From the NCBI GenBank assembly GCA_016700375.1, contig CP065016.1:930001-962000 (forward strand): a stretch of 32,000 bases of DNA. The letters are read 5' to 3'. The position numbers were made by a program, and so were the translations under genes. Position 1 is the stretch's first letter, and each line of letters starts with the position of its first letter. The notes beneath the pieces are model-generated. The model ran no database searches. It saw only the letters and a program-made list of their open reading frames with translations, and had not been told where the DNA came from. Shown one piece after another: positions 4,316 through 28,916 of the stretch. This DNA is from Candidatus Saccharimonadota bacterium (GTDB lineage Bacteria > Patescibacteriota > Saccharimonadia > Saccharimonadales > UBA4665).

Positions 4316-5467
4316 ATGTTTGAGGAAATCCAAAATTGGCCTACACCAATAAATGAGGAAAACTGGGCGACGCTAGAGGTGGGTCTGCTTCTTGAGCACG
4401 CAAAGAACAATAATAACCAGCGACTTCGAGGATTTGCTGAGATGTGGCAGGACATAAAGATTGGTCTTCAGACGGTGACAGATCAATCAACATCGCCATC
4501 ACTTTACTACCCGAAGAGTGAGCTAATAAATAGATGGATTATATTCAATAATTCGCTACGAGAGACCGTAATATCTCAGCCAAATGTGATCGAACAAGGC
4601 AGCTTTATACATCTCGGAAGCACTATTGGGTTATGGAGTGTGGGGTTAGATAGTGATGGCAATCCTAATCTTTCTGCAGACGGACAAATCATTGTTGATG
4701 CAAATATGTCAAAGGACTTTGGCCTGATATTTGACTTGGGTAAAACCGTAAAGAACTCCATTCCGTTTAAAGGAGGGGCAAAATCCCCATTTACTAAAGC
4801 GGCATTACAGAAGATCGAGGCAGCCTTTGACTCATTAGAAAAAAAGACCTCAGAAAAAATTGATCTCAAATATACTGAATTTGAAGCTAAGACGAACGAC
4901 GCTACAAAAAAACGTATTGCCGACATCAAAACCGTACAGGCTGCACGGTCATGGGCAACCCACTATGATGCACGCATAAAAGTTTTTGAACAAAGAGTTG
5001 CTGGTTTTGATAAGTTACGAACAAGATGGTATGGAGTACTCCTATTTGTCCTAATTATCTATGGGATTGGGGTGGTTTCTGTGCTGCTTGGCTGGCTCAA
5101 GCTGAGCGACATTGGAAGTTTACAGGGAATTGGTAAATATTTTCTTGGCCTTACTTTTTATGGAGCATTGCTCGGTGTGTATATTGGCTATAGCTTTGTA
5201 GTCAGACAACTAAAAGTAAGCCAGAACTTACTTGAGCAATACCATCATCGGGCTGTGGTCGCAAAGACAGTTGAGGGAGTCGTGGTAGCTGTAGCTAAAA
5301 CCAGGGACGGAACAGCTGCACCTGATGAACAAAGCGCTCTTAGAGATGAGGACTTGAAAACAATTGTTCAAACTGCCGCAGTTTCAATGTTTGAGTATCG
5401 CCCAATCGGTCATCTAGGCGGGAAAGAATCACCCAGCATACTTTCAGAACTCATAAGTAACAAATGA
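4316..5467 (+). CDS. Hypothetical protein: soluble N-terminal domain of about 230 aa, two TM helices and a C-terminal helical tail (383 aa)
   Basis: AGGAAA lies 6 nt upstream of the ATG. Hydrophobic segments are WYGVLLFVLIIYGIGVVSVLLGWL and FLGLTFYGALLGVYIGYSFVV. The gene is visibly more AT-rich than dnaK and dnaJ. No family recognised. Confidence 0.7.
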   Translation: MFEEIQNWPTPINEENWATLEVGLLLEHAKNNNNQRLRGFAEMWQDIKIGLQTVTDQSTSPSLYYPKSELINRWIIFNNSLRETVISQPNVIEQGSFIHLGSTIGLWSVGLDSDGNPNLSADGQIIVDANMSKDFGLIFDLGKTVKNSIPFKGGAKSPFTKAALQKIEAAFDSLEKKTSEKIDLKYTEFEAKTNDATKKRIADIKTVQAARSWATHYDARIKVFEQRVAGFDKLRTRWYGVLLFVLIIYGIGVVSVLLGWLKLSDIGSLQGIGKYFLGLTFYGALLGVYIGYSFVVRQLKVSQNLLEQYHHRAVVAKTVEGVVVAVAKTRDGTAAPDEQSALRDEDLKTIVQTAAVSMFEYRPIGHLGGKESPSILSELISNK

Positions 5468-6089: not shown

Positions 6090-9008
6090 ATGTTTTGGTT
6101 TTTTATCCTCGCAATTATTGTCATTATTGTCCTCTCTAGCAGGGGTAAGACAGCGCCACCACCGGCGAATTCCGTAAACCAGCAGTGGATGGATTACATA
6201 GCGGCATATAGGCATGGTGTAAAAACTAAGGCCGAAAGAGCGCTGCTTGCCCGCATGCTTTCTGACCTAGAGGCGCAAGGCATGCCGAGTCCATCACCTT
6301 CGCTACTAGAGGCGACAGCGGTCATAGATACAGAAGAATTCGAGCGACATAGAGATAAGACGGAAAACTCTGCGGCTACAGTGCAGGCTGCTGCGGTTGC
6401 TGAACCGGCTGCTATCGCCGAAGCCGTACCTGACTGGCAGTCTTCGGGTAATGTACCAGACCGTACTCAACAACCCTCAAGTTTGGATAATACGACACTC
6501 TTGCTCTACTTTGGCGCGTTCCTTTTTCTGGCTTCGGCCGGGCTTTTTGTGGCGCTCTCTGGTGCGTATGGTAGCATCCGGGTTGCAACAGTGCTAGTCG
6601 TGATGTCTGCACTCTACTTCGGCGGACTATGGCTGCACGACAATAAACCGAAGCTGCAAGCTGCGGGTAATACGTTTATAGGTATGGGTCTCATGCTCGC
6701 GCCGCTCGCGGGTCTTGCGACCTACTCATATGTTATGCACGACCAGCCCGAGCTGGTCTGGTTGCTAACGTCACTGCTGTGTTTGGGGCTGTATGGACAC
6801 GCGTTGCGTAAGCTCAAGACGCCGCTTATGGAATATATCTTTATCGGTACATTTGTTTCGTTGTTTGAGTCAGCCGTTTCGGTGTTACAGTTGCCATTGT
6901 ATTTCTACGGCTGGGGATTTGCAGCCGTTGGGCTTTGCATGCAAGCATGGTCGCTGTACCGTAAAAAAGTTGATGATTACGACGAGCCAACCACATTAAG
7001 CGGCAGCTTGCTTTTACCGATTTCTATATTGACGGCGCTGTACGTTTGGCCGCGCTACGGCGTGGTGCAGCTTGGCGTTTCGCTACTGCTCGCTGCTTTC
7101 TACTACGGCTTGCAGGCTTGGAAGGCCCGGCGGGATGATGTGAGAATTAATAACGCAGTAGTTTCACACGTATCGTTGCTATTAAGCCTTGCCTGTTTTG
7201 CGTACGGCGCTCAGCACAAACTGACAGACGTGACGGTACTGCTGCTGGTATTGGGCGCGCTGCAGCTAGGGGTTCTACTCACACGAGCCAGATCCTCGCT
7301 TATGCAAGTTTTTGCTAACATCACCTTTTTATCACTCGTTGTCGCCGCATTCTTGGGGTGGGAACGGCCATGGTACACGGCAGTTGCAACGCTGGCTGCT
7401 GTCATATTTGGCCTAACGCTGTGGGTCAGACAGTATCGCCCAGACATGTACGGTGCCGCAATAGGAGTTGCGGTAACGCTTCCGTTTAGTATTGGTTTAC
7501 GTGCCGTCGAGAACAAGTGGCATGCTTGGGGATTGGCGGTTGCGACGGGTGCAGTCGCCTTCCTTCAGCTCGTTATTTTTGTAGCAACACGACGTAAAGC
7601 GCTCGACACCCAAGAGTGGCGCACAAATTGGCGGGCGGCGCTTGTTCTCACGCTTACACTTGCGAGCTTCATAGCAATCTTTGCAGGCTCTATGTCGGTG
7701 CTTGTAGCCGGACTGCTTTCTGCGGTGGTGGCATATGCCATATATCGCTACGATGATGTGGCGGAGTGGCTTCAGACAAGTAGTCTTTTTGTGGCGTTAC
7801 CGGCGGTGTTTGCGGTATCGAAGCCAAGCGTATGGCTGGCGGGCTTGGCTGTAGGATGCACGTGGAATCTTGTACTCGTTTTTGCGAATCGGCTTGAGAC
7901 TGCTCGATGGGTCGGGAGTTTCCTATGGCTACTGCTCCCGATAGGTTTTGCGCGCGTTTTCCCAGTACTCCAAACATCGGAATGGTATGCGGGTAGTTTT
8001 TTGCTCTGTTTGGTAGGCATGGTCGTAGCGCGCGCGGTTGCAATGAAGCGTATCGCAAAGCTACCGATTGCCTTGTCGGAGCTTGAACGAAAGCTCCATA
8101 GCGACAGCCAGTCGTATGTCTTCGGATATATTGCAGCCAGTGTAATATCGTTTGGTGCCGCATGGGCTGGATCGCGGTTTGCGCCAGCGGTTGTGGGCTT
8201 ACTACAGGCCACCATATGGATGTACATTGCGCGAAACGTAGAACGCCGGCCAGATATCATGACCATACTGCCGCTACTGCTGCAGGCCGCCTTATGGGGC
8301 ACATTTAATCAAGACGGAGTTGGCTGGTATGTTTTCCTAAGTACGATGATTGCGCTCATGGGTTATCTTGTCGGCTGGTTCCAGCCTGCCGACAAACAAT
8401 CAACTGCGTATGCTCGTCAGTTCCAGCTTGCCTCGCTAGTGATGCTTTACATAGCACCAGCGGCCACATTTGCTCTTGGTACGCACTGGACAATGCCGTT
8501 CGGACTGGCGATAGCTGGCTGTGCAACACTGCATGCGACCTGGAACCGCGAACAAAGCGACCGAGAATGGGCGGGAGGCATCATAGCCCTCTCGCTTATG
8601 TGGCTTCTGTGGTACAACGGCGTAGAAAATATACAGGTGTACACACATATCCTGGCCGTACTTTTCGGTCTTTATGCCTACTGGCGAGCAACTCGAGGTG
8701 ATGCGGCAACAAGCCAGAGCTACTTGGTGGCTATGCTCTGCGCGGCGACAATTCCACTTGGCCTGCAGGTAATAGGCGGCAATGCTGGTGGCTTGTACGG
8801 CTGGTGGTTCCTGGGCGAGCAAATTGCCATTATGCTACTTGGTATGGCTATACATAATCGTTTTGTGACACGCTGGGGCATGTACGTGGCGGTTGGCGCA
8901 GTTCTGTACCAGTTACGGTCATTGGCATGGCTCTCGCTCACGCTTCTCGCCGTTTTCCTCATAGGCCTTGCCGTATACCAACTGCAAAAATCCGACTCAA
9001 AAAAATAA
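6090..9008 (+). CDS. Very large polytopic integral membrane protein (972 aa, more than 20 predicted TM segments)
   Basis: AAGGAGG SD. An N-terminal TM and a soluble linker of about 130 aa are followed by near-continuous hydrophobic helices. It is reminiscent of DUF2339-type membrane proteins, but that is unverified. Confidence 0.8.
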   Translation: MFWFFILAIIVIIVLSSRGKTAPPPANSVNQQWMDYIAAYRHGVKTKAERALLARMLSDLEAQGMPSPSPSLLEATAVIDTEEFERHRDKTENSAATVQAAAVAEPAAIAEAVPDWQSSGNVPDRTQQPSSLDNTTLLLYFGAFLFLASAGLFVALSGAYGSIRVATVLVVMSALYFGGLWLHDNKPKLQAAGNTFIGMGLMLAPLAGLATYSYVMHDQPELVWLLTSLLCLGLYGHALRKLKTPLMEYIFIGTFVSLFESAVSVLQLPLYFYGWGFAAVGLCMQAWSLYRKKVDDYDEPTTLSGSLLLPISILTALYVWPRYGVVQLGVSLLLAAFYYGLQAWKARRDDVRINNAVVSHVSLLLSLACFAYGAQHKLTDVTVLLLVLGALQLGVLLTRARSSLMQVFANITFLSLVVAAFLGWERPWYTAVATLAAVIFGLTLWVRQYRPDMYGAAIGVAVTLPFSIGLRAVENKWHAWGLAVATGAVAFLQLVIFVATRRKALDTQEWRTNWRAALVLTLTLASFIAIFAGSMSVLVAGLLSAVVAYAIYRYDDVAEWLQTSSLFVALPAVFAVSKPSVWLAGLAVGCTWNLVLVFANRLETARWVGSFLWLLLPIGFARVFPVLQTSEWYAGSFLLCLVGMVVARAVAMKRIAKLPIALSELERKLHSDSQSYVFGYIAASVISFGAAWAGSRFAPAVVGLLQATIWMYIARNVERRPDIMTILPLLLQAALWGTFNQDGVGWYVFLSTMIALMGYLVGWFQPADKQSTAYARQFQLASLVMLYIAPAATFALGTHWTMPFGLAIAGCATLHATWNREQSDREWAGGIIALSLMWLLWYNGVENIQVYTHILAVLFGLYAYWRATRGDAATSQSYLVAMLCAATIPLGLQVIGGNAGGLYGWWFLGEQIAIMLLGMAIHNRFVTRWGMYVAVGAVLYQLRSLAWLSLTLLAVFLIGLAVYQLQKSDSKK

Positions 9009-9070: not shown

Positions 9071-10228
9071 ATGTCAAAACGTGATTACTACGAAGTGCTG
9101 GGCGTTGGCAAAGATGCCAGTGCAGACGAAATAAAAAAAGCTTTTCGCCGGAAGGCGGTAGAGCTACACCCCGACAAGCAGGGTGGGGATGAAGTGAAAT
9201 TCAAAGAAGTAAATGAGGCCTACGAGGTGCTAAAAGACCAAAGCAAGCGCCAGCGTTACGACCAGTTTGGCCACGCCGGCGTGGGTGGCGCCAGTGGCGG
9301 AGGTGGCAATCCGTTTGGTGGTTTTGGCGGTGAATGGAATGGGCAAAACGTAAACTTTGACTTTGGTGACCTTGGCCTTGGCGACATTTTTGGTAGCTTT
9401 TTTGGCGGCGGTGCCGGTGGGAGTCGCGGGCAGCGTCAGGCGCGAGGAAACGACGTTGAGACACGCGTGGAAATTAGCTTCGAAGACGCCGTTTTTGGTA
9501 CCGAAAGCGAACTCCGGCTCAACCTAGAAGACACGTGTAGCCACTGCAAAGGCACAACGGCCGAACCAGGTCATGAGCTCAAAACCTGCGACACTTGCAA
9601 AGGTAATGGCCAAGTTGTGCAGGCTGTGCGAACTATATTTGGCAACATTCAGCAGGCGGCGGTTTGTCCAACCTGTCAGGGCAAGGGCAAAGTACCCGAA
9701 AAAGTGTGTAGCGTTTGCCGCGGCAAGGGCACCGAACGCCGCACTCAAACCGTCCAACTCAAAATCCCGGCTGGCATAGACGACGGTGCGACAATTCGCC
9801 TGCGTGAGCACGGCGAAGCTGTTGCGAATGGCCCGAAAGGCGACCTGTACGTCCACATCCGCGTCAAAGCGCATAAACACTTTACGCGTGAAGGCGACCT
9901 CATACTCAGCGACGAACACGTCAGCATGGTCGATGCCGCCCTCGGTACAGAAATAGATGTCGAAACGGTCGACGGAGCGGTGCGTATGAAAGTTCCGGCT
10001 GGGACCCAAAGTGGGAGCGATTTTAAACTGAGCGGCCACGGTGTCCCGCACCTTCAGAAAGAAACCCGTGGGGCGCATATAGTAACTATCATTGTCGATA
10101 CGCCGACGAAGTTGTCAAAGCAGCAGCAAGAACTCCTCGAGGCCTTCCGGGCCGAACCAAAAAAAACGCGGCTTTTTCTAGGCTTCACTTTTTGCTACAA
10201 ACACGTAATAATAGAGTCACATGCATAA
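9071..10228 (+). CDS. dnaJ: Co-chaperone DnaJ (Hsp40)
   Basis: J domain (DYYEVLGV...HPD), a G/F-rich linker and four CxxCxGxG zinc-finger repeats ([32 protein letters not shown]). Confidence 0.98.
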
Positions 10229-10356
10229 GCGTAAGCTCAATCAACGCGGTCTCATAACCATGGAATTGCTTATTTTGATAGTACTCGCAGTGGTAATCTA
10301 TCTTATCTACAAGAAAGTTCAGAGCGCACAACAATAGCGAGTGCTATACTACGCAA

Positions 10357-11322
10357 ATGGCAAATAGTGTAACAAGACAGCTGTTGCTGCAAGAGGCGGC
10401 GAAGCGTGGCTGGGCGGTGAAAACGATTGGGCCGCGAGCTCAATTATGCAAAATTACAACCCCAGATGGCGAAACTGAGACATTTAGCGGTTCGCGTCCG
10501 ATGAAAAGTTCTGCAAACGGAAGACACATAGCAGTATATAAAGACCTCACACTTTCTTTCGTTCAATCACTTGGCTATGATGTGCCGCCATACGCAACTG
10601 TAGACAATTTTGAGGCTGCACTGCCATTCCTCGAGCAGTACGGAACTGTTGTCGTAAAACCTATTGACGGCTCGCAAAGTGTTGGTGTTAGCGTTGGTAT
10701 TGAAACGCACGAAAAGTTGTATGCTGCGATTAGTTTGGCAAAGAACAATAGCGCATCGGGAAGAGTTATTATACAGAAGCAAATCAAAGGTAAGCTATAC
10801 CGGATACTAGTGATTAATGGAAAGGTCCCGGTCGTAACTGAGCGTCGTGCGGCACGTGTTATTGGCGACGGAGTATCATCGGTTTCACAATTAGTGGAGC
10901 TACTCAATCAAGATCCCCGTCGTGGTCACGGTTCAGATACTCCCCTGAAGGTGGTAGAACACAAGGCGGTCGAAGCATATCTAGGGAGTCCTGCAATGCA
11001 GCACATACCTGCAAGGGGCGAGATTATCCGCGTATCGGGCATAGAAAGCGTAAGCGCCGGAGGTGAAGCAGCAAATGTGACTGACATAGTAGACCAAACA
11101 TGGGTCGCCGCCGCATGCGCTATTACCAAGGCAATGGGATTATTTATTGCTGGTTTTGATATTATGACTGAAAATATTGCACAGCCCATTGAGGGCAAGT
11201 ACATCCCGCTTCTTGAAGTAAATAGCTCCCCAGGTCTAAAAATTCACGAATATCCTTCCCAAGGAGAGCCGGTACATATAGCACCTCTGCTTTTCAATGA
11301 ACTATTTTCAACCGAATCATAA
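10357..11322 (+). CDS. ATP-grasp ligase resembling the N and G domains of cyanophycin synthetase, with no M domain (321 aa)
   Basis: VVVKPIDGSQSVGV, RVIGDGVSSVSQLVELLNQDPRRG, SAGGEAANVTDIV, GFDIM and LLEVNSSPGLKIHEYPSQG match the pattern I recall for the CphA1 ATP-grasp region. It is a paralogue of the 13703-14767 gene. Confidence 0.8.
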   Translation: MANSVTRQLLLQEAAKRGWAVKTIGPRAQLCKITTPDGETETFSGSRPMKSSANGRHIAVYKDLTLSFVQSLGYDVPPYATVDNFEAALPFLEQYGTVVVKPIDGSQSVGVSVGIETHEKLYAAISLAKNNSASGRVIIQKQIKGKLYRILVINGKVPVVTERRAARVIGDGVSSVSQLVELLNQDPRRGHGSDTPLKVVEHKAVEAYLGSPAMQHIPARGEIIRVSGIESVSAGGEAANVTDIVDQTWVAAACAITKAMGLFIAGFDIMTENIAQPIEGKYIPLLEVNSSPGLKIHEYPSQGEPVHIAPLLFNELFSTES

Positions 11323-12224
11323 CCCCAATCACGCATTAGCCACCAATAGATAAAGCACGCTACAATTTCTCTTGTAAATCTTTCAAAACAAACAGGAGGA
11401 AAATATGCGTGCTTTACAGAGGAATAATATCGTAGATGTGTTTGTTTGGGTAGACGACATAGTCGTCCAACCAAACAAACGAGGTCAGCATCCGGCCCTT
11501 AAAGACAGTGAACTCCTCACTATCCTCATATGGGATGGCCTCACCGAACCCCACAAAAACCTTTCGAGTTTGTACGGCTGGGCTTGCAGAGAGTACTCGG
11601 ATTGTTTTCCTCATATGCCCAAGTACCAAAACTTTGTGGCTCACGTGCATCGATTACTGCCACAGATGGTTTGGTTGCTACAGACGCTTCTAGCAAGCGG
11701 AGCACCGCTCCGCTTTGTCGACAGCACAATGCTCCCCGTCTGTAAGCCCATACGTGCTAACAGACACAAAGTAGCCAAGGGTGTAGCCGACTTTGGCAAG
11801 AACTGGCAAGGGTGGCACTACGGGTTCAAGCTCCATGCGGCCATAGATTACAACAACAGGTTAGCAGCTGTTGTATTTACTCCTGCTAATGAACACGACA
11901 ATCAGCACATCGAACAACTCGTGAATGACCACACGAAGATACTTGTCGGCGATAGTCACTACGGTGGCAGCGTCATGCGCAAGCGACTCTGGAAGAAACA
12001 TAAAACTATAGTGATCGCACCACCGCATCATACTCAAAGAAAGAAATTAGCCGCAGACTGGCAAATGCTTTTGCTCCACATGAGACCAAAGATAGAAGCT
12101 ACCTTCGGTAAGCTTAAGGAACACCACTTCCTGGTCACTTCGTTCCCAAGAAGTGTTAAAGGTTACTTTACACACTATGTGCGGGTACTACTTGGTTACC
12201 AGATGGCTAATGCGTGATTGGGGT
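11322..12224 (+). mobile_element. Intact IS element, IS982-family-like (903 bp)
   Basis: Perfect 21-bp terminal inverted repeats: ACCCCAATCACGCATTAGCCA (11322-11342) and its reverse complement (12204-12224). A 7-bp direct repeat AATCATA flanks the element (11315-11321 and 12225-12231). It carries a single DDE transposase ORF. Confidence 0.9.
11405..12217 (+). CDS. DDE transposase, IS982-family-like (270 aa)
   Basis: AGGAGG SD. Candidate DDE residues lie in FVDSTMLPVC, LVGDSHYGG and RPKIEATFGKLK, with GFKLH between them. The ORF ends inside the right IR. The family assignment is from memory of IS982 motifs. Confidence 0.85.
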   Translation: MRALQRNNIVDVFVWVDDIVVQPNKRGQHPALKDSELLTILIWDGLTEPHKNLSSLYGWACREYSDCFPHMPKYQNFVAHVHRLLPQMVWLLQTLLASGAPLRFVDSTMLPVCKPIRANRHKVAKGVADFGKNWQGWHYGFKLHAAIDYNNRLAAVVFTPANEHDNQHIEQLVNDHTKILVGDSHYGGSVMRKRLWKKHKTIVIAPPHHTQRKKLAADWQMLLLHMRPKIEATFGKLKEHHFLVTSFPRSVKGYFTHYVRVLLGYQMANA

Positions 12225-12234
12225 AATCATAATA

Positions 12235-12263
12235 TTGCAAAATTAACCTTAACATGCTATAAT
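12235..12263 (+). promoter_or_regulatory. Sigma-70-type promoter for the 12320-15277 operon
   Basis: TTGCAA (12235-12240), a 17-nt spacer, then TATAAT (12258-12263). It lies immediately after the right-hand target-site duplication of the IS. Confidence 0.7.
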
Positions 12264-12319
12264 TTGTACTGTTCCTTCTCGCGCGGTTTCGTACTACACT
12301 AACCGTAGAAAAGACAATT

Positions 12320-13699
12320 ATGGTTAAACACAAGCTAGCTATCGATTATAATGCATCGCGCCCCATTGGGGTGTTGAGCCCTGACCCCTATAATTTCCTT
12401 ATTCTAGATATGTTGTTTGACGATATACAGATAGTCACCCCGCGTCAGCAAAATTGGCTTAGAGACCTGCCGCTCAAAGCGAAAGTCACATCTTTGAACC
12501 TCAATAAGCTTACTCCGGGCGAAAACATCGGTAAATTTGTTACTACTAAGAAATTTATTGAGATGTTTAAGGCGGATCCACGGCGCAAGTATCCCCTTTA
12601 TTCGCCGCTTGACCCACCCTACAAAGTAAATCCTCTCACGTACCTAATGAACTCCCCCACCATTGCTCATGCCTATGAGAATAAACGATATTTTCGCGAT
12701 GAATTTGCTGACCTTATCAAAGTACCCGAGTACGAAATAAAGTACATGAATGAACTTGACCGTGCAGCCTCGTACCGCGAACTTCGCGAACGGTTTGGCG
12801 GGGCATTTATGTTGCAAGACGAAGAATCGTCCGGTTCAAAAGGCAGCTACGCCATTCACAATGAAGATGATTATGTTGACGCCGTAAAATCACTCAAAAA
12901 ATATTCACAAGGTCGTACTGTCGTTGCGTCTCAGTTTGTTCGCGGCGAAGTCTCAAGCATTCAAGTGTGTATTACTAAATACGGCATTTTTAGCGGAGGC
13001 ATCCAGCGCCAGCTGGTAGACAGCAAATATCTATGTAACCCAAAACTCGAAGGCGCAACCCGATGGTGCGGCGGCGAAATTGGGGCGGAATACCCCGATA
13101 TTGTCCAGCATCGCGCGCAGGAAATCGCATCGGTCATTGGTTCGGAGCTATCCAGCCACGGGTATAAGGGAGTCTTTGGCGTGGACCTTATCGTAACCCC
13201 TGAGGATGAAGTGTACGCGATAGAAATCAACGCTCGACTGACCGGATATTCTCATATCATTAGCGACATGCAAATGCTTAATGGCAAAATACCATTTATG
13301 CTACTTCATATTCTTGAACTCGGGAACTACCGTTATGAGGTTACTGATACCGAAGCTCTGCCAAGCGCTGCACGTTACAAAAAACCGGGCTCACTTATGA
13401 TACTCAACAACCAGAGTAGTGAAGATTTTGTACTTAAACAGTACATTCGACCAGGAATATACAAACTAGTTGGTGACCGCGTGGAATTTGTCAAAGATGG
13501 CTACTCGCTCAAGGACTGCCGTAGTGGCGAAGACACTATGGTTATTATGTGTCGATACAACGAGGGAGAAACAATCGAACGCGGCAAACGCATCCTCAAG
13601 ATAATGAAGCTCGGCAAAACCATGAAGGGTAGCGACCTTAATCCTAAAGCGCAGCAGCTTGTAAGTGCAATTAAAACCACATTTAACCTACCCGGGTAG
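12320..13699 (+). CDS. ATP-grasp fold ligase with long N-terminal and C-terminal extra domains (459 aa); family unresolved
   Basis: Gly/Ser-rich loop DEESSGSKGSY and a Mg/ATP-site string GVFGVDLIVTPEDEVYAIEINARLTG. The architecture recalls peptide-ligase (PGM1-like) or D-Asp-ligase-like ATP-grasp enzymes, but this is unverified. Confidence 0.75.
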   Translation: MVKHKLAIDYNASRPIGVLSPDPYNFLILDMLFDDIQIVTPRQQNWLRDLPLKAKVTSLNLNKLTPGENIGKFVTTKKFIEMFKADPRRKYPLYSPLDPPYKVNPLTYLMNSPTIAHAYENKRYFRDEFADLIKVPEYEIKYMNELDRAASYRELRERFGGAFMLQDEESSGSKGSYAIHNEDDYVDAVKSLKKYSQGRTVVASQFVRGEVSSIQVCITKYGIFSGGIQRQLVDSKYLCNPKLEGATRWCGGEIGAEYPDIVQHRAQEIASVIGSELSSHGYKGVFGVDLIVTPEDEVYAIEINARLTGYSHIISDMQMLNGKIPFMLLHILELGNYRYEVTDTEALPSAARYKKPGSLMILNNQSSEDFVLKQYIRPGIYKLVGDRVEFVKDGYSLKDCRSGEDTMVIMCRYNEGETIERGKRILKIMKLGKTMKGSDLNPKAQQLVSAIKTTFNLPG

Positions 13700-13702
13700 A
13701 AA

Positions 13703-14767
13703 ATGCAACAGGTTGATTATAAAACCGTTACCGCGATGCTTGGAAACGGTTCGTCAATGCGGGGCGTCTTAAGGTGTTTTGCCGAAAAGGGTGCAAAAAT
13801 TTTTGTATTGTATGACCAGAAAAACGCGAACCATCGTGAGCGATATTTCCTCGTTAAATATGAGGAACTTACCATTCCTCTTAGGGCATACAGACTAAAT
13901 TTTATTTCGTCCCTAAACTCGTTACTAGCTCAAACTATAACCACCGATAAGGGAAAAACATGGGTTGTTGCTAAAGCCTACGACCTACCAGTCCCTGAAA
14001 CAGAGAAATTTGTGTCATATGATTTCGCAGATAGTTTCCTGAGGCGATTTCACTCAGTTGTTGTCAAGCCTGCTAAAGGTTCTCACGGAAATGGAATTAC
14101 TGTTGGCATAGAAGACAAAGGGGTACTTAAGCAGGCTGTCTCTGAAGCACAAAGATTATGCCCCGATGTATTAATACAACAACACATTAAGGGGGAAGAT
14201 TATCGTCTGCTTTTTGTCGATTATACATTTGTTGCCGCGGTGCGTCGAAGTCCTGCAGAAATCGTAGGAGATGGAACGCATACGATACATGAGCTCGTTT
14301 CTAGTTCGAATGAGGAAAGGCGAAAACAATGGTACGCTGTGCGGGATGGGTCACTTGATGGCGACAAAATAGTAGGTTCTATGTCTATAACTCCGCTTGT
14401 TGAGATTGAACGAGCCAGAGGAAAGGCATTCCTAGGCATGGTACCGGCCCTGGGCGAGACAGTAAAACTTCTAGATAAAGCCAATGTTAGTCTTGGTGGA
14501 CAAACCGAAGATGTGACGGACATCGTAAATACCGATTTGTGTAAACGCATAGAAAAATTGCTTCGCTCAATTGATTTACCGCTGTGTGGGGTCGATATTA
14601 TGTCAACGGACATTGCCAGTTCGCCCTCGGAGGGGAAGTCTTTTCTAATCGAATTGAATGCGGCACCGGGTCTGCGGCTCCACGAATCACCAACAGTAGG
14701 TACCCAAAGGCCGGTTTGCGGGCTAGTCGCAGATGCGCTCATACGCAAATATCGTGCGGTACAATAA
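13703..14767 (+). CDS. ATP-grasp ligase resembling the N and G domains of cyanophycin synthetase, with no M domain (354 aa)
   Basis: VVVKPAKGSHGNGITVG, EIVGDGTHTIHELV, SLGGQTEDVTDIV, CGVDIM and LIELNAAPGLRLHESPTVG. It is a paralogue of 10357-11322. Its start lies 3 nt after the stop of the previous gene. Confidence 0.8.
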   Translation: MQQVDYKTVTAMLGNGSSMRGVLRCFAEKGAKIFVLYDQKNANHRERYFLVKYEELTIPLRAYRLNFISSLNSLLAQTITTDKGKTWVVAKAYDLPVPETEKFVSYDFADSFLRRFHSVVVKPAKGSHGNGITVGIEDKGVLKQAVSEAQRLCPDVLIQQHIKGEDYRLLFVDYTFVAAVRRSPAEIVGDGTHTIHELVSSSNEERRKQWYAVRDGSLDGDKIVGSMSITPLVEIERARGKAFLGMVPALGETVKLLDKANVSLGGQTEDVTDIVNTDLCKRIEKLLRSIDLPLCGVDIMSTDIASSPSEGKSFLIELNAAPGLRLHESPTVGTQRPVCGLVADALIRKYRAVQ

Positions 14768-14773
14768 GGTAAT

Positions 14774-15277
14774 ATGTCTAATTACGTTTTGGAAGGAACC
14801 GAAACAAAGACAGCGTCTCGGGTCCGGGTTGGTAGCCCGGCTCTGGTTTCGCTGGTTATTATTGCTGTTGCGATAGTTATTACTTTTCTAGTGGTGTTAA
14901 TCCGAGAGTCCGTGAGCGCAGGGCCGAGACTTCAGGGGAAAGATACTGTTTATGCACTAGAAATTGCCGATTCTGAGGAAGAACGAATACGTGGCCTGAG
15001 CGGCCGGGAGCGGCTGGCTGAAAACAGCGGTATGCTGTTTGTGTTTGACCCTCCACAACAGGCTTGTATGTGGATGAAAAGCATGCGCTTTAGCATAGAT
15101 ATGCTATGGCTCGATACTGCGAAGAAAATCATCAACATGTCAGCTGATGTATCGCCGCAAACTTTTCCGAAGCTTTTTTGTGCCACAAAACCGGCGTCGT
15201 ACGTGCTTGAGTTACCATCTGGCACAATCGCCGGGCAATCATTTGCTGTAGGCCAAACGCTGAACATACACTTGTGA
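14774..15277 (+). CDS. DUF192 domain protein with an N-terminal membrane anchor (167 aa)
   Basis: The TM segment ALVSLVIIAVAIVITFLVVLI is followed by IADSEEERIRGLSGRERLAENSGMLFVF....CMWMKSMRFSIDMLWLD and YVLELPSG, the DUF192 pattern. It is coupled to the upstream ATP-grasp gene. Confidence 0.8.
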   Translation: MSNYVLEGTETKTASRVRVGSPALVSLVIIAVAIVITFLVVLIRESVSAGPRLQGKDTVYALEIADSEEERIRGLSGRERLAENSGMLFVFDPPQQACMWMKSMRFSIDMLWLDTAKKIINMSADVSPQTFPKLFCATKPASYVLELPSGTIAGQSFAVGQTLNIHL

Positions 15278-15465
15278 TGCATAGTGTGAGCTGGATTAAA
15301 GAAATAGTTCAGTTGTAGCTGTAGTATATGCCTATGATTTCACTCATTTTTCGGATACGTCGTTTCATTGCGTTCGTTGCGGTAGCTCGTTCGGTTTATC
15401 GTACGTACAAATCATTCAGACGAAGAGCACGTACTACCAAATAATGCTTATGGTATAGTGTCAGT

Positions 15466-15963
15466 ATGGACGCACAAATCTTGGTTGGGCTACTGGTGTT
15501 AGTGCCATTTGTAGCGGTTTTGCTGCTACATGCCAGTGGAGTATTTACGTTTTTGTCTCTATGTCTTGGAAGTGTACTGGCAACCTATGTTGCTGGCGAT
15601 GCCAACACGGTGCTCGCATCTGCTCGTAGCGGGGGCGGGCTGGCAACTATGCAATGGGTACAGCTTGGGCTGCTGGTAGCGCCAATGGCAGCCGCCATTC
15701 TTCTTACGCGCAAGAAATCAAAGGGTGTAAAACTTGTGCTGAGTGCAACGCTTGCGCTAATAGCCGGGGCGCTGCTTGCGCTTTTGGCAACGCCATACTT
15801 TTCGCGCGCACTTCAGGCTGACGTGACTGCAACAGAACTCTGGCATCAGCTATACAGCCTACAGACGGCCATTATCTTGAGCGGTACTGGACTGGTACTC
15901 TTCAACCTATTTTCTACGCGATGGAAGCCCGACGGCGACAAAAAGAAGCACAAAAAAGGCTAG
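15466..15963 (+). CDS. Hypothetical integral membrane protein (165 aa, about 5 TM, Lys-rich tail)
   Basis: Hydrophobic throughout. TGgTATAGT lies 6 nt upstream of the ATG, the leaderless-type arrangement. Confidence 0.65.
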   Translation: MDAQILVGLLVLVPFVAVLLLHASGVFTFLSLCLGSVLATYVAGDANTVLASARSGGGLATMQWVQLGLLVAPMAAAILLTRKKSKGVKLVLSATLALIAGALLALLATPYFSRALQADVTATELWHQLYSLQTAIILSGTGLVLFNLFSTRWKPDGDKKKHKKG

Positions 15964-17519
15964 AGCCAGTCTGGCGGAGTCTTACCGGTTTTTCGAATTC
16001 TCTCTGCGACTTGTCGTCTGTCAAAACCGTAGCTCTCCGCAACTTCACGAGCGTGGGAAGTATGCGAAATACCCGGAATGACTCTGTATGTCGGACCTTT
16101 GCCAGAGAACTCAACTTGAAGAAATTGGCCTAGCTCATGGTTGGCAAAATCATCTACCAGTTCATGAGCATGGGTCGAGAAAACAGTATTCCCGGCAGTG
16201 TAAGCGAATTCTGCCATAACAGCTTGCAGAACCTCAAGACGTTCTTCGTGAGTTGTGCCGTCGAGGCAGTCATCGAGTATGGTTAAAGATGCTGGCGAGG
16301 CTGCATTGAGTATCGACCGAACTCTTTGAAGTTCGAAGCCAAACCGCCCGCTCTGTTCTGAAAGATCAGGGGGCAGTGGAATATGGTATGCAATAGTATC
16401 AGCGATGTTGGTACCAAAGCGAGTAGCCACTACTGGCGCACCGATTTGAGCTAAAATCTGATTTTGGATTAAAGCTTTGGAAAGCGTTGACTTGCCACCA
16501 CTATTGGGTCCTGTAAGAAAGCTCAGGTTTTGGCCTGAGTGGGCTCCGAGGTGTATTGTGTTTTCGACCAAGTCTGCCCTGCTGCCTGCTAAAACAGGAT
16601 TCTTCATGTCCCAAGCATCAATATGTTGCTCGTTACTATCCGTAACATCTGGGAAACAAGTTTTATGTCCGTTTTCGCGAACCTGTTGCTGCCAAGCTGC
16701 TAAGCCCTGAACCTTGTCAAGCAGACCAACGCTCATAAGCGCACCCATGAATGCCCCATTGCCCATGTGTTCTTTGCGTATTTTTCTATATACGATTGGA
16801 TTGTTATATAGATCATCCTTTGCGGTTGATAGGCTACGATTACCCATCGGCATGTGAGTATAAAGGCCCGTAAACAATACTAAGACAGCGCCAGCTGAGG
16901 TCAGAGTCGCAGTCCCTGGTGGGAGGTGCCCAGTTTGTGCTAGATATAACGCCGCTAAGCTGGGGGTAACTATTCTACCAGAGAGAAGAGATCGGTGACG
17001 CCAGCGGGGTTCAAACAGGTTACGTTCATGCTTGCCGCGTAATCCCCGCAGGGTTATGTATACTGGTCCGACAAGTAGTTCAGAAGCATGTGACTCATTA
17101 TAGGTAGCAAGATGCTTACGTGCCAGCTCAAGACCACTTTCGGGATCAATTGAGGTTTTGTGGTCTTCTAATGCTTCCTGGATAGTCCTTAGTGCCTGTC
17201 CGCCTTTCCTTCCGGCTTGATATGCGACGAACCCTGTATCTTTTCCCTCAATAAACTCATCCAACTTTTTTTCATGATGTGCAAAGGCTCCCAAAGCGCT
17301 ATTTAGGTCAGCCCTGAACGAGGTACAACTATCTAAACACGCAATAGCTAGTTGATTAGTTCGTACAATCCGTGGCGATGTGGTCCCATGGCTGAACTCT
17401 TCCTTTAGTACAGCCGAACCCAAGTCAGTATGTAATGGAACCTGATTAAATAGTACGTCCAGCTCGGCTGACGCGTGTGAGAGAGGATCTACGTTGTAGT
17501 TGGTAGGGCCTGAATTCAT
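15960..17519 (-). CDS. MutS-related ATPase with only MutS domain V (519 aa)
   Basis: Walker A GPNSGGKSTLSK, Walker B LTILDDCLDGT, and FSTHAHEL followed by the MutS-like C-terminal HSHAREVAESYGF. The roughly 320-aa N-terminus has no recognisable mismatch-binding domain, and there is no Smr or HNH tail. Confidence 0.8.
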   Translation of the reverse strand: MNSGPTNYNVDPLSHASAELDVLFNQVPLHTDLGSAVLKEEFSHGTTSPRIVRTNQLAIACLDSCTSFRADLNSALGAFAHHEKKLDEFIEGKDTGFVAYQAGRKGGQALRTIQEALEDHKTSIDPESGLELARKHLATYNESHASELLVGPVYITLRGLRGKHERNLFEPRWRHRSLLSGRIVTPSLAALYLAQTGHLPPGTATLTSAGAVLVLFTGLYTHMPMGNRSLSTAKDDLYNNPIVYRKIRKEHMGNGAFMGALMSVGLLDKVQGLAAWQQQVRENGHKTCFPDVTDSNEQHIDAWDMKNPVLAGSRADLVENTIHLGAHSGQNLSFLTGPNSGGKSTLSKALIQNQILAQIGAPVVATRFGTNIADTIAYHIPLPPDLSEQSGRFGFELQRVRSILNAASPASLTILDDCLDGTTHEERLEVLQAVMAEFAYTAGNTVFSTHAHELVDDFANHELGQFLQVEFSGKGPTYRVIPGISHTSHAREVAESYGFDRRQVAERIRKTGKTPPDWL

Positions 17520-27577: not shown

Positions 27578-28226
27578 GGTGCCGTTCGTACGGTGATTCT
27601 GGGTCTGGGTTTTCTATGGTGGCGAGATCCCACTTGATTTCATCGTACATTTTCTTGACATCCTCATAATCTTCTAGAAAATCTAAATAGTTTTCAGATG
27701 ACGAAAAATACTCCATAATTCGCTTTGTACTAATCCAATCAGCATGTCTTTTGCCGAGGTAAAAATCAAGGCTCGTTTTGTCCGATTCTCTCCAGTCGTG
27801 CGGGTTTAGGTGGATGTAGCGTGAAATATGCTGGAGGTAGGCGTCGTCTCCTATCAAACTGGCACGGTAGCGACTCTGGAAAAGCGGGCCGACTCTTTTG
27901 TGGACTTTGTTGTACTGCATGCAGTAGCTAGTGAGTAGCGCCCGCATGAAGTCACGTATGGCATATTGGTCGTGCTGATACACAAAAAGATGTATGTGGT
28001 TTGGCATGAGAGCGTACGCAAGCAACTCAAGACGACCGACGAAAGATGGGTATACGTGCCGAGTATTGCTTTTGCTAGGTTTTGGTGAGAGATAGCGTTT
28101 GAGTAATCCAATGAAAACAGTGAAGTCAGCCTCTCCGTCGAAGGTAATGTTTTTGTTTACGCCTCTTGTATACAAGTGGTAGTAACTCTCTGGAGCGTAT
28201 TGCTTGATGATGTTTTTTCCGGGCAT
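27549..28226 (-). CDS. REP-associated tyrosine transposase (RAYT, IS200/IS605 Y1-transposase-like, 225 aa)
   Basis: YHLYTRG, the HUH motif MPNHIHLFV, and GPLFQSRYRASLI....YL..ISRYIHLNP. The gene is flanked on both sides by REP doublets. I chose ATG 28226 as the start because the track's 28262 start lies inside a REP unit. Confidence 0.85.
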   Translation of the reverse strand: MPGKNIIKQYAPESYYHLYTRGVNKNITFDGEADFTVFIGLLKRYLSPKPSKSNTRHVYPSFVGRLELLAYALMPNHIHLFVYQHDQYAIRDFMRALLTSYCMQYNKVHKRVGPLFQSRYRASLIGDDAYLQHISRYIHLNPHDWRESDKTSLDFYLGKRHADWISTKRIMEYFSSSENYLDFLEDYEDVKKMYDEIKWDLATIENPDPESPYERHLRQGRTLTQ

Positions 28227-28236
28227 GCCCACAGTA

Positions 28237-28319
28237 TGCGTCAAGGACGGACCCTGACGCAAGCAGCAGCGGTTTGCTATATGTTCGTTTTGGATGCGTC
28301 AGGGTCCGTCCTTGACGCA
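28237..28319. repeat. Second inverted doublet of the same 25-nt REP-like unit
   Basis: An exact copy at 28237-28261 and an exact reverse complement at 28295-28319, separated by 33 nt. Confidence 0.9.
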
Positions 28320-28343
28320 GGGGAAGTGTGGGATAATGGAAGG

Positions 28344-28916
28344 ATGATAGTGAGCTTGCGTGGGGTGGTGGAAAAGACGGTGGCGGGGTTGGTGCTCGAT
28401 GTAGGAGGTGTGGGGTATGGTCTCAGCGTCTCAAGCGAAGACTTTGGCCGTTCAGCAGATGGCAAGGAAGCAAAGTTTTACGTGTACGAACATATTCGCG
28501 AGCAGGGCTATGACCTGTTTGGTTTCAGCGAGCAGGGAACAAAAGAGTTGTTTGAACAGTTGCTTGGCGTAAAAAACGTGGGGCCAAAGGTTGCGATGGC
28601 CGTGCTAGACCTCGGGTCTGCAGCCACGGTGCGAGGTGCCATTGCTGCTGGTGATGTAAAGTTACTACAAAGTGCCAAGGGTGTTGGTAAGCGCGCAGCA
28701 GAGCAGATTGTGGTAGAACTGCGCGATAAAGTTGGCTTAGCCCCAGGTGCGTCGGCTGAAGATGTGGTGTACCGGCCTGGCGTGAACACGAAGGACGAAG
28801 CCGTGGAGGCGCTTGTATCACTCGGTTACTCCCCTCAGGATGCGGCAATTGCCCTGCAACAAATAGATGCTAGTCTCCCGACCGAAGAGCGAATAAAACA
28901 AGCGCTGAAGGGCTAA
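28344..28916 (+). CDS. ruvA: Holliday junction DNA helicase subunit RuvA (190 aa)
   Basis: MIVSLRGVV.......VLDVGGVGYGL.VS, HhH motifs (LLGVKNVGPKVAMAVL, LQSAKGVGKRAAEQIVVEL) and a C-terminal domain III. TGgGATAAT lies 6 nt upstream of the ATG. The track's 28176 start runs through REP units. Confidence 0.93.
   Translation: MIVSLRGVVEKTVAGLVLDVGGVGYGLSVSSEDFGRSADGKEAKFYVYEHIREQGYDLFGFSEQGTKELFEQLLGVKNVGPKVAMAVLDLGSAATVRGAIAAGDVKLLQSAKGVGKRAAEQIVVELRDKVGLAPGASAEDVVYRPGVNTKDEAVEALVSLGYSPQDAAIALQQIDASLPTEERIKQALKG

Follow-up and report, generated by a model that had tools for sequence, protein, structure and literature searches.

What might three ATP-grasp ligases, encoded together with an anchored DUF192 protein, be making in Candidatus Saccharimonadota bacterium? 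Their genes lie in a 32,000-nucleotide stretch of its genome (assembly GCA_016700375.1, contig CP065016.1, positions 930,001 to 962,000 of the forward strand; the whole stretch is referred to here as the window), and an initial annotation, which placed the open reading frames (ORFs) correctly, had proposed that they form an undescribed system for ligating a peptide or polymer. We tentatively take the locus to be the local version of a recurrent Saccharibacterial/Patescibacterial multi-ligase module whose product would be either an oligomer or polymer of alpha-linked amino acids or an acceptor-borne peptide tail, a reading to which we give somewhat less than an even chance; by analogy, it is proposed to work as RimK/RimB does, and as do multi-domain enzymes, CphA1 and GshF among them. 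The ligases, named A, C and B in gene order, and their membrane partners are:

10357-11322, + strand: ligase A, cyanophycin-synthetase G-domain-like ATP-grasp ligase, 321 aa, with an A-type variant of the pocket
12320-13699, + strand: ligase C, 459 aa, with pre-ATP-grasp, ATP-grasp and C-terminal beta domains, from an uncharacterised, mainly Patescibacterial family
13703-14767, + strand: ligase B, cyanophycin-synthetase G-domain-like ATP-grasp ligase, 354 aa, with a CphA1-like pocket
14774-15277, + strand: DUF192 (COG1430) protein, 167 aa, anchored in the membrane by its N terminus and predicted to have a domain outside the cytoplasm
15328-15444, + strand: candidate small ORF MPMISLIFRIRRFIAFVAVARSVYRTYKSFRRRARTTK, 38 aa, with one hydrophobic helix and a basic tail
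15466-15963, + strand: M165, 165 aa, with 4-5 predicted transmembrane helices and a basic C-terminal tail, KKKHKKG

The genomic context of C was surveyed in 34 non-redundant related loci (L numbers below; P numbers are related proteins). C follows dnaJ in every locus where dnaJ falls within the fetched stretch, and a RimK-superfamily ATP-grasp gene lies at most 3 kb from it in 18 of the 34 loci and at most 200 nt in 10. About 20 such genes were counted in 184 kb of near flank versus 3 in 332 kb of farther flank, that is, a density some 12-fold higher close to C. The ligase found beside C can be A-type, B-type or a true RimK bearing Rimk_N (L025, L036, L040, L041). Moreover, among the top representatives of its family, C-like proteins occur fused to RimB-like domains (four cases), an N-terminal G-like ligase (two), MATCAP (one) and GNAT (one). 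One of the two ligase fusions, P0247, joins to its C-family domain an N-terminal part that resembles A in its pocket and aligns with the whole of A at 39% identity (E 2e-73); the other, P0302, has a B/CphA-like pocket. These linkage statistics and natural fusions show C to be the working partner of a G-like or RimK-like ligase. Together with the C-RimB-RimK arrays described next, they bear out the supposition that the three ligases are functionally linked and are not chance neighbours.

The arrays come from deeper relatives. In L041 the order is dnaJ, C, RimB, RimK and an M165-like gene; in L040 it is dnaJ, a member of an uncharacterised family (U380), a C protein fused to RimB, RimK, DUF192 and an M165-like gene; and in L035 it is RimB, RimK, DUF192, one further ORF and C. 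Since C, RimB and RimK, with or without DUF192, thus share one position in these three loci, we tie the module to RimK/RimB. In two loci from other Patescibacteria, L039 and L042, a distant C homologue comes after 7TM_transglut and then an ATPgrasp_ST protein fused to a RimB-like domain; in L039 further RimK-like genes come next. RimB-like PF05618 is present in L035, L039, L040, L041 and L042, and it is fused or adjacent to C-family proteins in P0187, P0197, P0219, P0318, L041 and L035; P0325 carries the MATCAP fusion. MATCAP is named for tubulin tyrosine carboxypeptidases. RimK is an ATP-grasp ligase that either extends a C-terminal carboxylate with acidic residues in alpha linkage or synthesises free poly-alpha-Glu; RimB is a retropepsin-like trimming protease that strips Glu from RimK-made tails and stimulates poly-alpha-Glu synthesis, and hybrid RimB-RimK proteins exist (PMC11957791). 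That the peptidases recurring beside C or fused to it are trimmers of amino-acid tails is one of the grounds on which we favour a tail or polymer as the product.

A and B are paralogues (32% identity across 269 aa, E 2e-36), as first supposed, and both come closest to cyanophycin synthetase, from which they take only the central part. Each scores 208 bits against TIGR02068 (cut-off 850), and against PRK14016 A reaches 211 and B 203 bits (cut-off 877); the CphA1 chains 7lg5 and 7lgn in the PDB match both at E 1e-38 to 1e-40 (A versus 7lg5, E 5e-40). On the 862 positions of TIGR02068 the matches span 164-473 in A and 199-473 in B. The initial annotation had credited the two proteins with the N domain plus the G domain of CphA1: the G domain stands, but the primer-anchoring N domain (residues ~1-160) is missing from both, as judged from where the hidden Markov model (HMM) alignments start and from superposition of the structure of B. 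Both also stop at about model position 473, where, as had been stated, the Mur-ligase-like M domain would begin, and no such domain was found in the scanned window ORFs or the neighbouring genes. The AlphaFold2 (AF2) model of B (pLDDT 94.7) has as its best structural matches CphA2 7ta5 and CphA1 7wac, 7txv and 7lg5 (TMq 0.69-0.73), and superposes over its whole length (~345 columns) on the CphA1/CphA2 G domains, the ATP-grasp module of GshF being the next match. In sequence, too, GshF (118-151 bits) and NAGGN synthetase (123-141 bits) follow CphA as the next-best families for A and B. The GshF cut-off of 425 bits is far from reached (A 151, B 118, over the C-terminal ATP-grasp part only), and Pfam/NCBIfam scans of the window ORFs reported no domain of GshA type. 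Nor is either protein a RimK: TIGR00768 gives 36.9 bits for A and 43 for B (cut-off 143.4), neither has a PF18030 match to the Rimk_N pre-ATP-grasp domain, and their PF08443 match is only partial.

Stand-alone proteins of ~320 and ~355 aa are found consistently in dozens of genomes. Several of the ~355-aa G-domain proteins (P0127, P0132, P0138, P0144, P0147-P0149) bear the JGI label 'cyanophycin synthetase', which claims too much for proteins without the N and M domains.

Residue numbering and roles were taken from the TeCphA1 and SuCphA1 structures (PMC9427784) and mapped via alignment. The CphA1 G domain extends the C-terminal alpha-carboxylate of a peptide, using ATP/Mg ligands, residues that hold the C-terminal carboxylate and the acyl-phosphate, and contacts to the aspartate that include N394, S396 and R458, while E215 reads the Arg side chain of the last beta-Asp-Arg unit of the primer (PMC9427784). 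A keeps the catalytic K220, K261, R309, R323, D431, E450 and N452, with substitutions in the pocket (H267 to Q, N394 to S, R458 to K and E215 to H); its orthologues in L001, L010, L012, L014 and L015 retain the catalytic set, with Q, G or R at 267, S at 394 and K at 458. In B and nearly all of 37 orthologues found by homology to it (P0121-P0157, ~355 aa, 42-58% identity), K220, K261, H267, R309, R323, N394, S396, D431, E450 and R458 are kept. The comparison with CphA1 that had been called for therefore finds the aspartate pocket kept in B, but a differing pocket in A and no N domain. The position of E215, T in B and H in A, is variable among orthologues. Read from these alignments, A and B are complete G domains with intact ATP/Mg and acyl-phosphate residues. 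Because the catalytic residues are kept, both are probably active as carboxylate-extending ligases; they probably also differ in acceptor and amino-acid specificity.

One B orthologue, in L006, lies ~1 kb from a Peptidase_S51 gene (9995-10585, minus strand) that stands beside a HAD hydrolase and a sortase, in this genome only. Peptidase_S51 is the cyanophycinase/dipeptidase E family, and the gene is a possible hint at aspartyl-peptide turnover.

C is an ATP-grasp enzyme of a different family with extra terminal domains, as first described (PF02655, 42.8 bits against a gathering threshold of 23.2). It is highly conserved: orthologues across Saccharimonadia are 65-85% identical, mean column identity is 74-75% (15-53 sequences), and the SSGSKG loop and E302-x-N304-x-R306 are invariant in 53 orthologues. 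The AF2 model of C (pLDDT 85) resembles PurD, PurK, biotin carboxylase, LdmS and BacD at template-modelling (TM) scores of 0.5-0.6 and 10-15% identity; for PurD, PurK and biotin carboxylase the Foldseek probability is 1.0, yet the predicted fold matches known enzymes only generically. Its sole sequence hits in the PDB are BesA 8yi6, LdmS 7r8p and PGM1 3wvq (E 1e-4 to 1e-2), and the similarity is limited to ~50 residues around the EINARxTG region. C stays far below the cut-offs of the LdmS (31 versus 475 bits) and BesA (25.6 versus 750) models, and its match to PRK06524 'biotin carboxylase-like' is merely distant (85.8 bits over residues 168-455, against 684). In metagenomes the wider family numbers 1070 cluster representatives at E <= 1e-3; a profile search of distant members returned only unnamed entries or 'ATP-grasp domain-containing protein [Patescibacteria group bacterium]', and a cluster-name lookup of distant homologues returned no names. 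No contig matched in a lookup of the exact sequence of C. Neither a characterised single-function enzyme as best match nor a split CphA, two of the outcomes that would have undone the original idea, was seen for the ligases.

Membrane proteins also recur beside C. The DUF192 protein (PF02643, 100.1 bits against a threshold of 27) is membrane-anchored, as had been predicted, by a hydrophobic segment at about residues 22-43 that is N-terminal and present in every orthologue examined; its homologues in the PDB, 3m7a and 3pjy (E 4e-10), are both uncharacterised. Its gene adjoins C in ~20 of the 34 loci and lies beside RimK in L035 and L040. The ligase unit, formerly thought to close with this gene at 15277, continues to M165 and possibly includes the 38-aa ORF. 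M165 homologues come after C or C-DUF192 in ~29 of the 34 loci, making this protein the most constant neighbour of C, and both DUF192 and M165 recur with C or RimK where the gene order has changed (L035, L027). Searched against Pfam at lenient thresholds, M165 gave scattered noise only and no family; homology to 7TM_transglut was considered and rejected (hhalign probability 0.4%). The 38-aa ORF has homologues in the same spacer between DUF192 and the membrane protein in L010 (3189-3281, 48% identity, E 5e-7) and L012 (11936-12046, E 0.03); its product may be a small protein of the membrane, or even serve as acceptor.

The domain assignments, the conservation of catalytic residues, the linkage of the genes, the fusions and the membrane anchors are shown by the data above; on top of these we infer a reaction order, amino-acid specificities, an acceptor and roles for the membrane proteins as follows. 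C, the conserved core ligase, would make or prime a carboxylate substrate. A swappable partner, a true RimK or a CphA-G-like ligase depending on lineage, would then extend its C-terminal carboxylate via an acyl-phosphate intermediate. This genome has two such partners, A and B, which may act as exchangeable extension steps: B, with its CphA1-type pocket, would most likely add aspartate or a similar small polar or acidic residue, and A, with a different pocket, some other residue. The anchored DUF192 protein, the polytopic M165 and possibly the 38-aa peptide would link the process to the membrane, serving as scaffold, acceptor or exporter.

Several observations weigh against this scheme. In about a third of the loci C is found with M165, and sometimes DUF192, and no second ligase nearby, and peptidases, RimB and MATCAP included, are missing from the window itself (no PF05618-like ORF came up in phmmer searches seeded with four RimB sequences). 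The weak sequence hits of C are to small-molecule L-amino-acid ligases, and its fold match is generic. Conservation of M165 is low (38% mean column identity, few invariant residues), which fits a passive membrane partner better than an enzyme. Aspartate as the amino acid of B is only suggested by its pocket residues, since N394 occurs also in the NAGGN-synthetase-like P0167 and P0170, and R323 and R458 are general features. Lastly, a C-like PF02655 protein was not seen in the annotation table of the cultivated Saccharibacterium S. epibionticum (Cell 2023 supplement), which thus appears to be without C; the same table places RimK-RimB upstream of DUF2339-dnaJ.

The main rival to a membrane-tied tail or polymer system is a cytoplasmic pathway that yields a small peptide as a metabolite, for instance a thiol resembling glutathione, an osmolyte resembling NAGGN, or some other di- or tripeptide; the dipeptide would come from C and a further residue from A or B, the membrane proteins being unrelated neighbours or an exporter. 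GshF and NAGGN synthetase, the families next to CphA in the scores of A and B, both use the G-like domain to add one residue to a small acyl substrate that their fused partner makes; the sequence hits of C in the PDB are all L-amino-acid ligases; and the fusions of G-like and C-family domains mirror the two-step logic of GshF. Such a pathway is, on the other hand, at odds with the repeated finding of C-family proteins fused to or beside peptidases that trim tails (RimB-like, MATCAP) and true RimK, a maker of polymers and tails, with the constancy of the membrane partners, and with family scores that all lie far below cut-offs; we regard it as rather unlikely.

The same fusions allow a more specific idea, which we think doubtful: that a G-like and a C-family ligase form a cyanophycin-synthetase-like machine with two active sites, the second ATP-grasp enzyme replacing the Mur-like M domain. 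The two would be separate proteins here and fused in P0247 and P0302, DUF192 and M165 would be anchoring or export partners, and the product might be a poly-amino acid not known before, alternating or branched in structure, or else a tail of mixed residues carried by an acceptor in the membrane or the ribosome. G-like domains are elsewhere fused to an enzyme that makes their substrate, namely the M domain in CphA1, GshA in GshF and GNAT in NAGGN synthetase.

Modification of the cell envelope, raised earlier as a cell-wall substituent, is improbable, and we found no specific support for it. The ligases would place amino acids on peptidoglycan stem peptides, cross-bridges or another wall polymer, in the manner of D-aspartate ligase, with DUF192 acting outside the membrane. 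ATP-grasp ligases do add amino acids to the wall in Firmicutes, DUF192 is anchored with a predicted extracytoplasmic domain, a sortase and the Peptidase_S51 gene lie near the B orthologue of L006, and C and B weakly match an archaeal pseudomurein ATP-grasp model (E ~1e-3). However, genes for wall synthesis, mur and fem among them, are found in none of the 34 neighbourhoods, S. epibionticum (whose genome was not checked for wall synthesis) appears to be without C, the partner ligase varies and can be a true RimK, and the fused peptidases are tail trimmers.

It is more improbable still that the genes are unrelated and have only a variable stretch downstream of dnaJ in common, with B and the insertion sequence (IS) described below as recent arrivals in a hot spot. 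The interval from dnaJ to comEC/yebC does vary greatly between genomes (GGDEF, FolD, HAD, MutS-like and transposase genes), A and B occur together only in the window among the loci sampled, and the GC content of the cluster is below that of its flanks. Set against this are the ~12-fold enrichment of RimK-superfamily genes beside C, the fusion proteins, the persistence of DUF192 and M165 with C or RimK under changed order (L035, L027) and gaps of 3 and 6 nt. A true cyanophycin synthetase, split into separate polypeptides or by an assembly artefact, has next to no chance of being right despite the JGI names of several B orthologues and the best HMM and structure matches to CphA1 and CphA2, and was rejected: there is no N or Mur-like M domain in the window or related loci, the HMM span is G-only with 208 bits against 850, E215 is not conserved, and the stand-alone sizes are constant across dozens of genomes.

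Two further features lie between A and C:

11323-12224, + strand: IS982-family insertion sequence, 902 bp, in the A-C intergenic region, with its transposase ORF at 11405-12217
12235-12263, + strand: promoter-like site TTGCAA-17-TATAAT with a TG extension, ahead of C-B-DUF192

The transposase scores 152.5 bits against NF033520 transpos_IS982 (cut-off 130), and the element, present once in the window, has terminal inverted repeats of ~21 bp (ACCCCAATCACGCATTAGCCA and TGGCTAATGCGTGATTGGGGT) and a 7-8 bp target duplication, AATCATAA, at 11315-11322 and 12225-12232 that takes in the stop codon of A. The near-consensus promoter reported earlier was found again in a consensus scan (10 of 12 matches plus TG). 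When the IS is removed in silico the site aligns with those of the IS-free L010 and L001, in which the extended -10 box TGCTATAAT and the downstream TTCGTAyTACACTA are conserved; hence the IS, inserted just past the stop codon of A, disrupts no gene, and the promoter-like site of C is native. IS-driven disruption or promoter creation was rejected on the same ground. Judged by sequence, C thus has a promoter-like site of its own, separate from A, and A, upstream of it, is predicted to be its own transcription unit. Tight coupling, as had been noted, is seen between C and B (3 nt) and between B and DUF192 (6 nt). The four genes are nonetheless not a fixed operon: A orthologues lie upstream of C in L001, L010, L012, L014 and L015 and are absent from many loci, and B is missing between C and DUF192 in L001 and L009-L014. 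Because in the closest relatives, L001 and L009-L011 (C 82-85% identical), C is directly followed by DUF192, B is taken from this comparison to be a lineage-specific insertion between the two. What is conserved in relatives is C, usually with M165 and often with DUF192 and a swappable ligase, but not the full set of four.

Proteins of the window are 65-85% identical to ones whose sources give their origin as Candidatus Saccharibacteria or Saccharimonadales. Gene order in the window runs hrcA, grpE, dnaK, a 383-aa ORF, a 972-aa membrane protein, dnaJ and A, then the IS982-family element, C, B, DUF192, the 38-aa ORF and M165; on the opposite strand follow a MutS-domain-V protein, serA, serC and glnA, with comEC, crp, yebC, ruvC and ruvA beyond; rpsF is absent from the window. 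The ligase cluster is more AT-rich than its flanks, as the initial annotation had judged by eye: GC is 0.47 in A, 0.458 in C, 0.451 in B and 0.486 in DUF192, against 0.52-0.54 in dnaJ, serA, serC and glnA.

Some neighbouring genes deserve mention in their own right. U380 is a family of ~380 aa encoded immediately upstream of C in at least eight genomes (L004:8784-9908, L024:8819-9970, L011:8790-9992, L013:8750-9952, L036:8765-9970, also L014, L015 and L040; in L014 and L015 between A and C). It has no Pfam or PDB sequence match; its invariant motifs AYGANxSP, WHGxPGQxG, FAELY and TEGxTY resemble those of gamma-glutamyl cyclotransferase, but hhalign against a human GGCT sequence, though it aligned the expected motifs, gave a probability of only 1.4%. 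Between dnaK and dnaJ lie the 383-aa ORF (4316-5467, + strand; no Pfam match, GC 0.424) and the polytopic 972-aa protein (6090-9008, + strand), which has homologues in L013 and L014 and the position of which is held in S. epibionticum by a protein annotated as DUF2339-like beside RimK-RimB. A hydrophobic 25-aa mini-ORF, MELLILIVLAVVIYLIYKKVQSAQQ (10262-10339, + strand), lies between dnaJ and A, and L008 has a called 38-aa gene at the equivalent place. The MutS-domain-V gene (15960-17519, minus strand; 519 aa, with the ATPase domain PF00488, E 2e-19, as its sole module) ends in a 4-nt convergent overlap with the stop codon of M165; it is another lineage-specific insertion, since L001, L009 and L011 lack it at this position and have serA directly next. 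Lastly, an IS200-like Y1 transposase (PF01797; 27549-28262, minus strand) between ruvC and ruvA is a second mobile-element gene, which the listed ruvA ORF (28176-28916) overlaps; the true ruvA start is probably further downstream.

Many environmental Saccharibacteria/Patescibacteria lineages, despite tiny genomes and very little biosynthetic capacity, keep C at ~75% column identity, together with membrane proteins and interchangeable partner ligases. Identifying the product would assign a function to the C family, to DUF192 (COG1430) and to a lineage-specific membrane protein, and would reveal the role of stand-alone cyanophycin-synthetase G domains. The module could prove to be a new system for tailing proteins or making poly-amino acids, with a bearing on the control of translation or on the cell surface of epibionts, and stand-alone G domains with an intact aspartate pocket may be of interest for making polyaspartate-type polymers.

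Among known systems, RimK/RimB (RimABK), responsible for polyglutamylation of ribosomal protein S6, is tied to the locus by the RimK and RimB genes beside C at the post-dnaJ position in L040, L041 and L035 and by the fusion of C-family proteins to RimB-like domains. It differs in that the window lacks a RimK bearing Rimk_N, RimB and RimA: the partner ligases are CphA-G-like, the constant element is an extra ATP-grasp enzyme, C, and DUF192 and M165 are associated. With CphA1/CphA2, A and B share homology across the full G domain (~25-35% identity, TM ~0.7), including the Glid and G-omega modules; B keeps the CphA1 contacts to the C-terminal carboxylate, the acyl-phosphate and the incoming aspartate, and the natural fusions of G-like and C-family domains echo the two-ligase architecture of CphA1. 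Unlike CphA1, A and B lack the N and Mur-like M domains and E215 and reach about a quarter of the HMM cut-off, and from this make-up they cannot produce cyanophycin as known.

GshF and NAGGN synthetase contain the ATP-grasp modules next closest to A and B, and in both a G-like module adds one residue to the product of a fused partner, a precedent for C acting before A or B. The cluster, in contrast, has no GshA or GNAT partner and scores far below the cut-offs, and those enzymes make small soluble molecules without peptidase or membrane partners. PGM1, BesA and LdmS have the three-domain ATP-grasp architecture of C, but the similarity covers ~50 residues, with NCBIfam scores of 25-31 bits against 475-750 and structural TM scores of ~0.5. 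Iyer, Aravind and colleagues are said to have predicted in 2009, by comparative genomics, neighbourhoods of ATP-grasp amidoligases (PF14402 7TM_transglut, PF14397 ATPgrasp_ST, PF05618). The arrays around the C homologues of L039 and L042 are like these in combining several ligases, a trimming protease and a polytopic membrane protein; the window differs in having none of the 7TM_transglut, ATPgrasp_ST and aspartyl-protease (PF05618) families, M165 not being a 7TM_transglut homologue. To our knowledge DUF192 is not part of the amidoligase systems described, and literature searches on Saccharibacteria with ATP-grasp, stand-alone G domains and DUF192 yielded nothing relevant. The proposal of an undescribed system thus holds in part: clusters of ATP-grasp amidoligases with trimming peptidases and membrane proteins are a known theme, from RimABK and the predictions just mentioned, and the C-RimB-RimK-DUF192 arrays of L040, L041 and L035 provide a precedent. 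What appears to be undescribed is the C family itself, that it pairs with CphA-type G domains standing alone, that it occurs in natural G-C fusions, and that DUF192 and M165 accompany it.

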